Positions 18,676 to 21,834 of a stretch of 27,896 bases of DNA are shown piece by piece. The notes beneath the pieces are model-generated. The model ran no database searches. It was given only the letters and a program-made list of their open reading frames with translations, and was not told the DNA's origin. The position numbers were made by a program, and so were the translations under genes. Every line of letters starts with the position of its first letter. The stretch's first letter is position 1. This DNA comes from Escherichia coli (GTDB taxonomy: Bacteria > Pseudomonadota > Gammaproteobacteria > Enterobacterales > Enterobacteriaceae), in NCBI RefSeq assembly GCF_003334255.1, contig NZ_QOWU01000061.1; one strand, given 5' to 3'.

Positions 18676-20274
18676 ATGCAAAAAGCACAACGGATCATTA
18701 AAACCTATCGTCGTAATCGAATGATTGTTTGTACGATTTGCGCACTCGTTACGCTCGCTTCGACCCTGAGCGTGCGATTTATTTCACAGCGTAACTTAAA
18801 TCAACAACGGGTAGTACAATTCGCCAATCACGCTGTAGAGGAATTAGATAAAGTACTGCTTCCCCTACAGGCAGGTAGCGAAGTCTTGCTTCCGCTGATT
18901 GGTCTGCCCTGCTCTGTCGCCCATTTGCCATTACGTAAACAGGCGGCAAAACTCCAAACTGTGCGATCCATTGGCCTGGTGCAAGACGGCACACTTTATT
19001 GCTCCAGCATTTTTGGTTATCGCAATGTGCCCGTCGTGGACATTCTGGCTGAACTTCCTGCACCGCAACCACTTTTACGCCTGACGATCGACCGTGCCCT
19101 GATTAAAGGCAGTCCGGTTTTGATTCAATGGACGCCTGCAGCGGGCAGTAGCAATGCTGGGGTCATGGAGATGATTAACATCGACTTACTGACGGCAATG
19201 CTGCTTGAGCCACAACTGCCGCAAATCAGTAGCGCCAGCCTGACGGTGGACAAACGGCATTTGCTCTATGGTAATGGGCTGGTAGATTCCCTTCCGCAAC
19301 CTGAAGACAATGAAAACTATCAGGTTTCTTCGCAACGCTTTCCTTTTACCATTAACGTTAATGGTCCGGGGGCTACGGCGCTGGCATGGCACTATCTTCC
19401 AACACAATTACCGCTGGCGGTGCTGCTAAGTTTACTGGTGGGCTACATCGCCTGGCTGGCGACCGCTTACCGAATGAGCTTTTCCCGCGAAATCAATCTG
19501 GGCCTGGCGCAACATGAGTTCGAATTGTTCTGTCAGCCTTTGCTTAATGCGCGCAGCCAGCAATGTATTGGTGTAGAGATTTTGCTGCGCTGGAACAATC
19601 CGCGTCAGGGCTGGATTTCACCGGATGTGTTTATTCCTATCGCGGAAGAACATCATTTAATTGTGCCACTGACCCGCTATGTGATGGCAGAAACCATTCG
19701 TCAGCGCCATGTTTTCCCGATGAGTAGTCAGTTTCATGTTGGCATTAACGTCGCACCCAGCCATTTTCGCCGTGGTGTGCTGATAAAAGATCTCAATCAG
19801 TACTGGTTTAGCGCTCACCCGATTCAGCAACTGATCCTCGAAATCACCGAACGCGATGCCTTACTGGATGTTGATTATCGGATTGCCCGCGAGCTGCATC
19901 GTAAAAACGTCAAACTGGCGATTGATGACTTCGGCACCGGCAACAGCTCGTTTTCCTGGCTTGAAACATTACGTCCTGACGTGCTGAAAATTGATAAGTC
20001 ATTTACCGCAGCTATAGGTTCTGACGCGGTTAACTCGACGGTGACCGATATCATCATCGCGCTGGGGCAAAGACTGAATATTGAACTGGTGGCGGAGGGC
20101 GTGGAAACGCAAGAACAGGCGAAGTATTTGCGCCGTCATGGCGTGCATATTTTGCAAGGGTATTTGTACGCACAGCCGATGCCGCTACGTGATTTTCCCA
20201 AATGGCTGGCGGGCAGCCAACCGCCGCCCGCCCGGCATAATGGACATATCACGCCCATTATGCCGTTACGTTAA
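18676..20274 (+). CDS. pdeD: CSS-motif domain plus EAL-domain cyclic-di-GMP phosphodiesterase (532 aa)
   Basis: In-frame ATG at 18676 gives 532 aa; periplasmic CSS motif (LYCSSIFGY), TM segment, C-terminal EAL domain (EILLRW); recognised as PdeD (YoaD). Confidence 0.85.
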   Translation: MQKAQRIIKTYRRNRMIVCTICALVTLASTLSVRFISQRNLNQQRVVQFANHAVEELDKVLLPLQAGSEVLLPLIGLPCSVAHLPLRKQAAKLQTVRSIGLVQDGTLYCSSIFGYRNVPVVDILAELPAPQPLLRLTIDRALIKGSPVLIQWTPAAGSSNAGVMEMINIDLLTAMLLEPQLPQISSASLTVDKRHLLYGNGLVDSLPQPEDNENYQVSSQRFPFTINVNGPGATALAWHYLPTQLPLAVLLSLLVGYIAWLATAYRMSFSREINLGLAQHEFELFCQPLLNARSQQCIGVEILLRWNNPRQGWISPDVFIPIAEEHHLIVPLTRYVMAETIRQRHVFPMSSQFHVGINVAPSHFRRGVLIKDLNQYWFSAHPIQQLILEITERDALLDVDYRIARELHRKNVKLAIDDFGTGNSSFSWLETLRPDVLKIDKSFTAAIGSDAVNSTVTDIIIALGQRLNIELVAEGVETQEQAKYLRRHGVHILQGYLYAQPMPLRDFPKWLAGSQPPPARHNGHITPIMPLR

Positions 20275-20277
20275 CGC

Positions 20278-21834
20278 TTACTCATCTTCATCGTGCGCCG
20301 GTTGCTCTTTAACAATGCGAACCAGATCAACACGATAATCATTGGCTTCAATGATGGTGATATGCAGTGGCCCTACATCAATCACATCGCCCACACGGGG
20401 AATGTGACCATTTGCCGAGATCACGAGGCCCGCGACCGTCGCGATATCATCGTCATCGGCAAGGTGCTCAACATCAAGCGCCTGCTGCAAGGCATGCAAA
20501 TCTGTACCGCCTTTTACCAGCCAGCCGTCACCATCAGTAATGATTTCCGGCGTTTCGTCAGCGTCCGGGAATTCACCCGCAATGGCTTCCAGCACATCCA
20601 GCGGCGTGACCAGACCTTGTACCACACCAAACTCGTTGGTCACGATAACAAAGCTCCCGCGAGCACGACGCAGCACGCCCAACAGGTTGATCGGATCGAG
20701 GGTTTCCGGGACGATAATCGCCGGAGACGCCGAAGCAATCGCCGCCACATCAACGCCCTCTTCCAGCGCCACCAGCAGTTCTTTAGCACGTACAATACCG
20801 ATGATTTCATCCAGTTCACCGCGACATACCGGGAACAGACTGTGCGGTGAAGAGAGCAGTTGCTCGCGGATTTCATCGACCCCGAGATTAGCGTCAACCC
20901 AGCTTATTTCACCGCGCGGCGTCATGATCCCGCGCAGAGAACGCGACGCCAGCGTCAGTACGCCGTTAATCATGTAACGTTCTTCTTCGGCAAATGCACC
21001 TTCCGGGATCGGCATCGGCATCGGGTTATCGGCATCGTGCTGAACATTGGCCTGACGTTTCCCGCCCATCAAACGCAGGATGGCATCGGCAGTACGCGCT
21101 CGCAGCGGCAAAGTCGACTGGTGGCGAATAAAGTTGCGACGCGCAATCTGGTTAAACACTTCGATGATGATCGAGAAGCCAATCGCGGCATACAGGTAAC
21201 CTTTCGGAATGTGGAAACCGAAACCTTCTGCCACCAGACTCAGACCAATCATTAACAGGAAGCTCAGACAGAGCACCACCACCGTGGGGTGCTGGTTAAC
21301 GAATCGCGTCAGCGGTTTGGATGCCAGCAACATAACCGCCATCGCAATCACTACCGCCGCCATCATCACCGGCAGATGGTTAACCATCCCTACTGCAGTA
21401 ATTACCGCATCCAACGAGAAGACGGCGTCAAGGATGACAATCTGTGTGACGACCACCCAGAAACTGGCGTAGCCTTTACCGTGGCCGGAATCATGATCGC
21501 GGTTTTCCAGCCGTTCATGCAGTTCGGTTGTTGCTTTGAACAGCAAGAATATCCCCCCGAACAACATAATCAGGTCGCGTCCGGAGAAGGAGAAATCCAT
21601 GACGGTAAATAGCGGTTTGGTCAGCGTGACCATCCATGAAATCAGCGACAGCAGCCCCAGACGCATAATCAGCGCCAGTGATAACCCCAGCAAACGCGCT
21701 TTATCGCGTTGTTTTGGCGGCAGTTTGTCAGCAAGAATGGCGATGAAGACCAGGTTATCGATACCCAGCACAATTTCGAGAACAACAAGCGTGAGTAGCC
21801 CCGCCCAAATTGAGGGGTCCATTAAGAATTCCAT
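20278..21834 (-). CDS. yoaE: TerC-family integral membrane protein with C-terminal CBS-pair/CorC domains (518 aa)
   Basis: ORF 518 aa, hydrophobic N-terminal half and CBS/CorC-like C-terminal half; stop lies 3 nt from the convergent pdeD stop. Confidence 0.9.

Follow-up and report, generated by a model that had tools for sequence, protein, structure and literature searches.

The two tight convergent gene pairs in the window, the whole 27,896-nt stretch of Escherichia coli DNA analysed here, are probably (roughly two chances in three) ordinary compact convergent junctions with mRNA 3′-end signals embedded in the coding sequence of the partner gene. The genes and their stops are laid out as follows.

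18676–20274, plus strand: pdeD coding sequence, a CSS-EAL c-di-GMP phosphodiesterase of 532 aa (EAL domain, residues 273–501; C-terminal extension, residues 502–532)
20275–20277, strandless: CGC spacer of 3 nt between the pdeD and yoaE stops
20278–21834, minus strand: yoaE coding sequence, a CNNM/CorC-family cation transport protein named MgpA in Salmonella
25937–26503, plus strand: mntP coding sequence, a Mn2+ efflux pump
26500–27309, minus strand: rlmA coding sequence, the 23S rRNA G745 N1-methyltransferase
26500–26503: TTAA shared-stop quartet, comprising the mntP TAA (26501–26503) and the rlmA TAA (reverse complement of 26500–26502)

The pdeD stop is a TAA at 20272–20274 on the plus strand and the yoaE stop is read as TTA at 20278–20280 (TAA on the minus strand), as both the sequence and the list of open reading frames show. 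The 3′ end of mntP reads GGT TAA, with the TAA at 26501–26503 on the plus strand, and the rlmA stop, TTA at 26500–26502 on the minus strand, gives a 4-nt overlap. An earlier note on this DNA had reported a 3-nt gap between pdeD and yoaE and a 4-nt overlap between mntP and rlmA; both are borne out by the sequence, by the open reading frames and by the RefSeq annotation of K-12 MG1655, in which the sequence is identical to the window and the four ends and gene identities are the same. Pfam confirms the domains of PdeD and RlmA, all four proteins are full-length and conserved in up to 80 species, and an annotation artefact is ruled out by four conserved full-length frames with unambiguous stops.

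Both junctions are thus tail-to-tail pairs of real coding genes on opposite strands, with stops that overlap or lie a few nucleotides apart, and both belong to known kinds. mntP/rlmA differs in nothing essential from tail-to-tail genes with shared stops (YTAR quartets such as TTAA): it has TTAA, as does yiaV/yiaU, and its orthologues have TTAA, CTAA or TTAG. pdeD/yoaE is an abutting variant (0–8 nt) without overlap, and is already recorded as an excludon. Such tight junctions are an uncommon but regular minority class of about 10%: in a 150-kb sample from elsewhere in the same genome, two of the 20 convergent junctions are at 3 nt or less, yiaV/yiaU at −4 nt and pdeR/ymiD at −19 nt. Two tight junctions among the four annotated convergent junctions of the window therefore depart only slightly from expectation (binomial P about 0.05 at p = 0.1). 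The −4 overlap of mntP/rlmA is kept in 54 of 70 Enterobacteriaceae loci, using only quartets that preserve both stops (TTAA 46, CTAA 6, TTAG 2), and the pdeD/yoaE gap is 0–8 nt in 55 of 77. To judge from these comparisons, the tight layout is old and no accident of K-12. Shared or abutting stops are mutationally locked, because nearly any change lengthens one of the two proteins.

Within the final codons of the partner genes, the RNA folds into hairpins.

20233–20265, minus strand: HP1, CGGCAUAAUGG...CCAUUAUGCCG, beginning 13 nt past the yoaE stop, in pdeD codons 519–530
20208–20232, minus strand: HP2, GGCGGGCGGC-GGUUG-GCUGCCCGCC, a 10-bp G+C-rich stem, in pdeD codons 511–519 including the PPP motif
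26469–26489, minus strand: hairpin A, GCGUCCAGA-GGA-UCUGGACGC, a perfect 9-bp stem, in the final 12 mntP codons
26512–26545, plus strand: hairpin B, CUGCCAGA...UCUGGCAG, an 8-bp stem 9 nt past the mntP stop, in the rlmA CQT and WQR codons

In yoaE-sense RNA, the HP1 stem has 11 Watson–Crick pairs, or 15 counting G-U pairs, and HP2 is followed by AGCCAUUU (also given as AGCCAUUUGGG) without a U-run. Together they span 20208–20265, pdeD codons 511–530, beyond the EAL domain. The yoaE-sense RNA from 20285 to 20200 folds at −48.5 kcal/mol (z = −5.7; 0 of 200 shuffles equal it), and the HP1/HP2 region ranks second of 5,570 50-nt windows on each strand. Hairpin A, followed by CGAUGCCGAUC and likewise without a U-tract, ranks fourth among the 5,570 on the plus strand. 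Among 50-nt windows lying within 70 nt of the junction, the strongest fold is −33.6 at pdeD/yoaE and −25.1 at mntP/rlmA; the background of the same statistic has a mean of −17.1, an s.d. of 3.5 and a minimum of −26.0. A hairpin of −31.3 kcal/mol is likewise embedded at yiaV/yiaU, the second TTAA junction. Rfam has no family at the HP1/HP2 site, giving merely spurious sub-threshold microRNA matches at 20233–20265, and an origin of HP1/HP2 as a REP-like dispersed repeat is ruled out, the 73-nt module being single-copy in 5,423 of 5,426 E. coli genomes.

Published transcript maps place the following features on the minus strand, to which we add two candidate Rho-loading sites.

26463, minus strand: rlmA mRNA 3′ end by Term-seq, 6 nt past hairpin A, ...UCUGGACGCCGAUGC, without a U-tract (Adams et al. 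2021, PMC7815308)
26517, minus strand: peak of a Rho (bicyclomycin-sensitive) region at the rlmA 3′ end, Rho score 10.2, p = 1.3e-31, coarse at 800-nt windows (PMC7815308)
20026, minus strand: peak of a Rho (bicyclomycin-sensitive) region antisense to pdeD, Rho score 5.5, coarse at 800-nt windows (PMC7815308)
20078–20127, minus strand: candidate rut site of the yoaE transcript, C-rich and G-poor (19 C : 7 G), proposed from composition
26350–26449, minus strand: candidate rut site of the rlmA transcript, C:G 15:9 and 15:7 per 50 nt, directly downstream of hairpin A, likewise proposed from composition

The primary rlmA 3′ end was reported at NC_000913.3 1906214(−) (Adams et al. 2021, PMC7815308), which corresponds to window position 26463 by a coordinate conversion verified on two strands. 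It lies 37 nt beyond the rlmA stop, antisense to the last mntP codons, and the mapped stable overlap of the rlmA mRNA with the mntP coding sequence is 41 nt. The Rho peak at 20026(−) lies 252 nt beyond the yoaE stop, and the candidate rut tract of yoaE sits 150–200 nt after that stop. pdeD-yoaE, moreover, is among 165 convergent overlapping transcription units listed by ExcludonFinder (PMC12288877). The proposal in the earlier note that transcripts enter the opposing gene accordingly agrees with the rlmA 3′ end, with both Rho regions and with this listing. Its premise that neither pair has room for a terminator is not supported, since 3′-end-forming hairpins are present, embedded in the coding 3′ ends of the partners.

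These hairpins are not canonical terminators. A consensus scan found no intrinsic terminator at either junction, and in E. coli a U-run after the stem is absent on both strands of both. The combination of G+C-rich stem and U-run is present at the orthologous site of Klebsiella and Raoultella, where a canonical intergenic hairpin with a T-run lies past yoaE in a spacer of 33–57 nt. The E. coli junction hairpins resemble that spacer element, and the intergenic terminator of yeaX/rnd (window 7061–7110), in being strong palindromic hairpins on both strands; they differ in lacking a U-run and in being translated within pdeD or mntP. The 3′-end list of Adams et al. 2021 (PMC7815308) contains no yoaE, pdeD or mntP end, and the TERMITe supplements no 3′-end match for these three genes. 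Expression of pdeD and mntP is low in LB, where an abundant rlmA 3′ end is seen (PMC7815308).

A close likeness is to the transcripts that Dar and Sorek (2018, PMC6061677) describe, which are Rho-dependent and carry a protective 3′ stem-loop. As in that class, the steady-state end of rlmA lies a few nucleotides past a stem-loop that has no U-run, and published data show its read-through to be bicyclomycin-sensitive; the C-rich tract just downstream is, by composition, a candidate counterpart of the rut region of that class. Unlike in that class, the stem-loop here lies within opposing coding sequence and not in an untranslated spacer. HP2 shares the lack of a U-tract, and yoaE would belong to the class by analogy, with its 3′ end expected beside HP2. 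Alternatively, the rlmA 3′ end could arise from processing that has nothing to do with Rho.

We propose that RNA polymerase would run beyond the yoaE or rlmA stop into the partner gene in antisense. Because the RNA there is untranslated, Rho could load on the C-rich tracts and terminate transcription within a few hundred nucleotides, and 3′-to-5′ exonucleases, with PNPase and RNase II as the candidates, would then trim the RNA back to the stable stem-loop just past the stop, hairpin A for rlmA and HP1 with HP2 for yoaE. As these stem-loops adjoin the stop codons, the stable sense/antisense overlap would be short, about 40–75 nt. Encoded by the final 12–22 codons of mntP and pdeD, they would be kept by RNA-level selection on top of the coding constraint. 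For the opposite direction, hairpin B is a candidate 3′ structure of the mntP mRNA.

A doubtful alternative is excludon-type regulation, in which selection favours 3′ overlaps that let transcription of either gene repress the other, through polymerase collision or through cutting of the duplex by RNase III. Such regulation would join the Mn2+ exporter to rlmA, and the Mg2+-stress protein YoaE/MgpA to the c-di-GMP phosphodiesterase PdeD. pdeD-yoaE does count among the core excludons of E. coli, being present in at least 50% of the 58 RNA-seq sets, but mntP-rlmA is absent from the ExcludonFinder list (NAR 2025, PMC12288877), and in published data the likeness of both pairs to excludons is that of overlapping transcripts only, for mntP the 41 nt covered by the rlmA mRNA (PMC7815308). 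Rho inhibition raises read-through into pdeD and mntP 5- to 10-fold (PMC7815308); normally, however, the antisense RNA is confined by Rho. Family-wide conservation of both tight junctions might suggest selection for the overlap, yet locked stops and 3′-end hairpins account for it more simply, and about 10% of convergent junctions share the layout. No functional link between the partner genes is known, and a literature search linking mntP and rlmA returned no relevant paper. StyR-291, a 61-nt cDNA from Salmonella Typhi (Chinni et al. 2010; PMC2943607) that is described as following mgpA (yoaE) and as antisense to the pdeD 3′ end, was negative in northerns of S. Typhi and E. coli, and the one reported complementation test gave no phenotype.

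It is unlikely that the hairpins have no RNA-level role, arising instead as by-products of a preference for G+C-rich codons and of protein sequence, namely the PdeD tail rich in proline and glycine and the motifs CQT/WQR and GVQILWT. The C-termini of MntP and RlmA are conserved as protein and the PdeD tail is moderately so, and a protein-level role for that tail is conceivable. Compared with recodings that keep the protein and change only synonymous codons, the native sequences nevertheless fold much more stably. Across 22 species the pdeD tail has a median z of −2.6 in the pdeD sense and −2.7 in the yoaE sense (E. coli, z = −4.1, 0 of 200), but the control, the yoaE tail, does not stand out (z = −0.9 and −0.4). 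In wide-gap species (K. pneumoniae, R. terrigena, Kluyvera), the same test finds no structure in the pdeD tail.

Comparison across species is complicated by shifts of the stem register among genera. On account of these shifts, RNAalifold finds no single consensus in a 56-species alignment of HP1/HP2 (−0.68 kcal/mol), a point in favour of the by-product reading, and we therefore used fixed-column pair counts together with the alignment-free recoding tests. The HP1/HP2 structures put to the test came from E. coli, a choice that favours the unshifted register. In them, pairing holds in 76% of cells compared with 35–54% for slid positions, and 46 cells are altered on both sides compared with 26.9 ± 4.1 in shuffles (0 of 500). 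Pairs showing any double change are no more numerous than in shuffles (214 of 500), and fixed-column covariation is moderate. Two-sided compensatory change also exceeds shuffles in hairpin A, with 35 double-changed cells compared with 17.3 ± 3.3; pair 17/31 is CG in 19 and UA in 14, and pair 15/33 CG in 10 and UA in 10. Hairpin A decays in several genera. Hairpin B, nearly invariant across the species compared and almost without covariation, may merely reflect the conserved CQT and WQR codons.

Further evidence for an RNA-level role comes from the yoaE side, where a hairpin follows the stop in 81 of 81 loci, coding or intergenic alike. It outlasts the loss of pdeD, as three pdeD-less species retain a hairpin downstream of yoaE (that of Intestinirhabdus alba being an HP1 remnant), and where the tail is absent an intergenic terminator replaces it. 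At the other junction, the base of hairpin A is precisely where the rlmA 3′ end falls.

Collision-driven bidirectional terminators (Ju et al. 2019; Wang et al. 2022), in which embedded stem-loops position head-on collisions and both genes terminate independently of Rho, share with these junctions the palindromic hairpins on both strands and the lack of U-tracts, but are very improbable here, as minus-strand read-through at both junctions is bicyclomycin-sensitive (scores 10.2 and 5.5; PMC7815308), the class model predicts greater efficiency for highly expressed pairs, and collisions should be rare in LB, given the weak expression of pdeD and mntP there, even though the rlmA 3′ end is plentiful.

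Returning to embedded 3′-end signals, the pdeD tail allows a stronger proposal, which we regard as a long shot. The 31-residue C-terminal extension of PdeD might be a translated terminator, its sequence AGSxPPPARHNGHxxPxMPLR dictated mainly by the two 3′-end hairpins of yoaE/mgpA, and the structured yoaE 3′ UTR, StyR-291, might be a cis-antisense element on the last pdeD codons. The 61 nt of StyR-291 fit HP1 plus HP2 (58 nt), and position and length together suggest that they are the same element. Were this proposal true, c-di-GMP turnover would be tied to Mg2+/cation stress. In most genera the pdeD stop lies 7–9 nt after the HP1 stem, so a pdeD mRNA trimmed to HP1 would end within a few nucleotides of its own stop and could give non-stop messages. 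More generally, were the overlaps regulatory, metal homeostasis would be tied to c-di-GMP signalling or to rRNA methylation.

For annotation and for scans of this kind, the junctions carry a caution: the absence of a gap does not mean the absence of 3′-end signals, because these can be written into the final codons of the partner gene, and both loci illustrate this cleanly and with deep conservation. Through an RNA structure that it needs, one gene constrains, and probably shapes, the C-terminus of the protein encoded on the opposite strand, here the PdeD tail with its PPP motif and the V..T, A..A and S..S pairs in the last helix of MntP.

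The window matches E. coli K-12 MG1655 at 100% identity, and its genes were taken from the RefSeq annotation of the MG1655 sequence (window coordinate = locus L001 coordinate + 11,799). Read directly, the pdeD/yoaE junction consists of TAA (20272–20274), a CGC spacer and TTA (20278–20280), and at the mntP/rlmA junction, GGTTAATAA, the mntP stop (26501–26503) and the rlmA stop (26500–26502, the reverse complement of TTA) have TTAA in common. Direct reading thus bears out the stop-codon coordinates of the earlier note, and its gene identities are correct according to RefSeq and to the domains of PdeD (532 residues, with a CSS-motif domain at 43–240 and an EAL domain at 273–501) and RlmA (zinc ribbon and methyltransferase domains both found). 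The annotation makes YoaE a CNNM-family cation transport protein; work on it in Salmonella has used the name MgpA.

Genes (RefSeq) and embedded hairpins at the two convergent junctions, in window coordinates
18676–20274, + strand: pdeD
20278–21834, − strand: yoaE
25937–26503, + strand: mntP
26500–27309, − strand: rlmA
20265→20233, − strand (yoaE sense): HP1, 15-pair stem
20232→20208, − strand (yoaE sense): HP2, stem GGCGGGCGGC/GCUGCCCGCC
26469–26489, − strand, inside mntP: hairpin A, perfect 9-bp stem
26512–26545, + strand, inside the rlmA 3′ end: hairpin B, starting 9 nt past the mntP stop

Several neighbouring elements were seen as well. The small ORF yoaL (21822–21980) and yoaE, both on the − strand, overlap by 13 nt at the yoaE start, and yoaL may serve as the yoaE leader peptide. 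Upstream of the cold-shock gene adjoining rlmA lies a cspA-type thermoregulator (RF01766, 129.8 bits; 27400–27850 and 27475–27684, both −); this gene is named cspE in the RefSeq record, and by map position is presumably the one usually named cspC. The sRNA sroD is located at 8266–8351 (−).

The 86 nt of yoaE-sense RNA counted from the stop fold into two adjoining hairpins at −48.5 kcal/mol (z = −5.7; 0 of 200 shuffles equally stable). In a 50-nt sliding fold scan of the whole window, the HP1/HP2 region ranks second of 5,570 on each strand, outranked only by the yeaX/rnd palindrome (7061–7110), and hairpin A ranks fourth on the + strand. For a fairer comparison, we took the best 50-nt fold ≤70 nt from a position, with random positions as background (mean −17.1, sd 3.5, minimum −26.0 kcal/mol); the values were −33.6 kcal/mol at pdeD/yoaE, −25.1 at mntP/rlmA and −31.3 at yiaV/yiaU, a tight convergent pair elsewhere in the genome. 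HP1/HP2 form pdeD codons 511–530, wholly past the end of the EAL domain (residue 501), and match no Rfam family. None of HP1, HP2 and hairpins A and B is followed by a U-run, and a consensus terminator scan made no call at either junction. After HP1, the pdeD strand reads UUACGUUAA, and the stop codon lies 7–9 nt past the stem in most genera. The yeaX/rnd palindrome, the window’s strongest hairpin (−35.5 kcal/mol on one strand and −34.4 on the other), fills an ordinary 53-nt convergent gap between yeaX (6094–7059, +) and rnd (7113–8228, −).

Both junctions are present in most of 80 Enterobacteriaceae loci collected with a YoaE query and 10-kb flanks, in which genes were found by tblastn and then extended to the stop codon. 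The mntP/rlmA gap is −4 in 54 of 70 loci (window included); Klebsiella and Raoultella have +3 instead, and the Cedecea group has 0. At the −4 overlaps, the quartets (TTAA 46, CTAA 6, TTAG 2) are exactly the variants that preserve both stops, the pattern that marks purifying selection at a site under two constraints. Of 77 loci scored for pdeD/yoaE, 55 have a gap of 0–8 nt and 5 a negative one; the 17 with 9–90 nt are chiefly Klebsiella, Raoultella and Kluyvera. In two loci, Huaxiibacter L059 and Lelliottia sp. WAP21 L060, the rlmA frame extends 48 nt into mntP, with an RlmA C-terminus unlike the usual one; pdeD of the former has an in-frame stop two codons ahead of its usual end (...IMP*R), and in the latter the frame extended from the PdeD match terminates 672 nt away from the stop of yoaE, its C-terminus showing no relation to PdeD. 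In a record titled Chryseobacterium sp. 18061 (L027), yoaE, pdeD, mntP and rlmA stand together as is typical of Enterobacteriaceae, and its YoaE shares 88% identity with that of E. coli; the record is probably contaminated or mislabelled.

Four lines of evidence indicate that HP1/HP2 and hairpin A are selected as RNA. When the last 24 pdeD codons were recoded synonymously, keeping the protein sequence, folds became much weaker: native folds in 22 species had a median z of −2.6 (pdeD sense) and −2.7 (yoaE sense), with −4.1 for E. coli alone (0 of 200 recodings as good); the yoaE tail gave −0.9 and −0.4 in the same test. In K. pneumoniae, R. terrigena and Kluyvera, where the gap is wide, the pdeD tail shows no structure. 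Median z was −1.5 and −1.8 for hairpin A (E. coli about −3.1), and z was about −2.1 for hairpin B, which is almost invariant and hence uninformative. In a 56-species alignment tested with the E. coli-derived HP1/HP2 structure, 76% of cells are paired, versus 35–54% with the partner column slid; double-sided changes occur in 46 cells versus 26.9 ± 4.1 in shuffles (0 of 500), and the covariation score is 0.197 versus 0.07–0.10. The count of HP1/HP2 pairs with any double change was not above shuffles (214 of 500), and RNAalifold found no single consensus structure because stem registers shift between genera. Hairpin A pair 17/31 is C-G in 19 cases and U-A in 14, and pair 15/33 is C-G in 10 and U-A in 10; in the protein, these switches are the coupled V..T, A..A and S..S residues of IGIG[VAS]QILW[TAS]HF. 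The PdeD tail is moderately conserved at the protein level too.

A hairpin lies 3′ of the yoaE stop in every locus, in coding and non-coding sequence alike. Klebsiella and Raoultella have a canonical hairpin and T-run in a 33–57-nt pdeD/yoaE spacer (for example, GGCTGGCCGGTTTTTTTTATCC). Three loci (L033, L062 and L064) have lost pdeD, so that sdaA now faces yoaE, and all retain a strong hairpin: in L033 (Intestinirhabdus alba) it is an HP1 remnant, a perfect 13-bp hairpin CGGCATAGCGGAC...GTCCGCTATGCCG that is now intergenic, and in the other two it is different and terminator-like.

The PdeD tail also carries a conserved PPP(A/P) motif (20215–20229, codons 514–518) encoded by the HP2 stem CCGCCGCCC. 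Polyproline runs stall ribosomes and need EF-P; here the RNA stem may have produced the motif as a side effect.

Published 3′ ends were placed by NC_000913.3 coordinate = window + 1,879,751; this offset comes from the Term-seq strings of manZ (+) and rlmA (−), whose agreement requires the 3′ end to be character 51 of the 61. The primary rlmA 3′ end, 1906214(−), or window 26463, was recorded in two growth conditions (Adams et al. 2021, supplementary file 1; PMC7815308); it (...GCGUCCAGAGGAUCUGGACGCCGAUGC) lies 6 nt past hairpin A and 37 nt beyond the rlmA stop, antisense to the mntP end. That listing contains no 3′ ends for yoaE, pdeD or mntP. Rho regions mapped by DirectRNA-seq with and without bicyclomycin (supplementary file 2), with scores from 800-nt windows that locate termination roughly, include 1906268(−), or window 26517 (Rho score 10.2, p = 1.3e-31), and 1899777(−), or window 20026 (5.5, p = 1.2e-6), the latter antisense to pdeD, 252 nt beyond the yoaE stop. 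Rho-dependent transcripts end precisely just 3′ of a stable stem-loop that has no U-run and guards against PNPase and RNase II, with a rut site just downstream (Dar and Sorek 2018; PMC6061677); the rlmA 3′ end, a few nt past hairpin A with no U-run, fits this architecture. C exceeds G in the 100 nt past hairpin A (15:9 and 15:7) and 150–200 nt past the yoaE stop (19:7), a composition consistent with candidate rut sites.

Other Rho regions fall in the window (PMC7815308). One at 6921 (−) is antisense to yeaX despite the 53-nt gap, so zero-gap pairs are not alone in reading through into a partner gene. Another, at 18692 (+), 16 nt into pdeD and downstream of sdaA (score 9.6, p = 3.6e-21), suggests that sdaA read-through is stopped at the pdeD start and that pdeD is poorly transcribed in LB. 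A third (25784, +, score 3.5) is in the mntP leader, whose Mn2+ (yybP-ykoY) riboswitch (25710–25806, +; RF00080, 41.6 bits, E = 1.4e-9) scores just below the gathering cut-off of 45 and was therefore missed by the default Rfam scan.

Tight convergent junctions are a regular minority, roughly 10% with a wide confidence interval. Three 50-kb stretches of the same genome outside the window hold 20 convergent junctions, with gaps of 52, 11, 459, 218, −4, 21, 31, 150, 195, 950, 93, 50, 36, 158, 127, 119, 77, −19, 125 and 63 nt; two are ≤3 nt, yiaV/yiaU (−4) and pdeR/ymiD (−19). Of the window’s four annotated convergent junctions, two are tight and two are not (yeaX/rnd, 53 nt; yoaC/yoaH, 119 nt), which is only mildly unusual. 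The yiaV/yiaU overlap (L082 30407–30469, E. coli) is a TTAA quartet identical to that of mntP/rlmA, with its −31.3 kcal/mol hairpin just inside yiaU, a hint that zero-gap junctions may as a rule carry embedded hairpins; none is present at pdeR/ymiD.

The best-supported reading is a compact, evolutionarily locked junction in which the final codons of the plus-strand genes contain the 3′-end elements of the minus-strand genes. RNA polymerase transcribing rlmA or yoaE would enter the partner gene and be stopped there by Rho, and the mature RNAs would end at the embedded stem-loops. For rlmA such an end is observed, giving a 41-nt overlap; for yoaE we infer one, with a predicted overlap of ~75 nt. 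The earlier note’s interpretation holds in part: transcripts do extend into the opposing gene, as the rlmA 3′ end at 26463 and the Rho regions at 26517 and 20026 bear out, but its premise that there is no space for a terminator is misleading, since strong hairpins embedded at both junctions can define those ends.

The overlaps could possibly act as an excludon. ExcludonFinder counts pdeD-yoaE as one of 165 overlapping convergent transcription units in MG1655, and mntP-rlmA is absent from its list (PMC12288877). StyR-291, a 61-nt Salmonella Typhi cDNA antisense to the pdeD 3′ end (Chinni et al. 2010; PMC2943607), fits HP1 plus HP2 (58 nt) when compared by length alone; its northerns were negative, and the mgpA complementation phenotype was unaffected. 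The junction hairpins could also possibly be collision terminators, a reading that conflicts with the bicyclomycin sensitivity. A dispersed repeat is ruled out: in 5,423 of 5,426 E. coli genomes the HP1/HP2 module occurs just once.

The compact, locked junction with embedded 3′-end elements belongs to known kinds: gene pairs that meet tail to tail and share stops, and Rho-dependent 3′ ends that a stem-loop protects. What is modestly new is that the stem-loops are conserved within coding sequence, where they seem to shape the C-terminal sequences of both PdeD and MntP.
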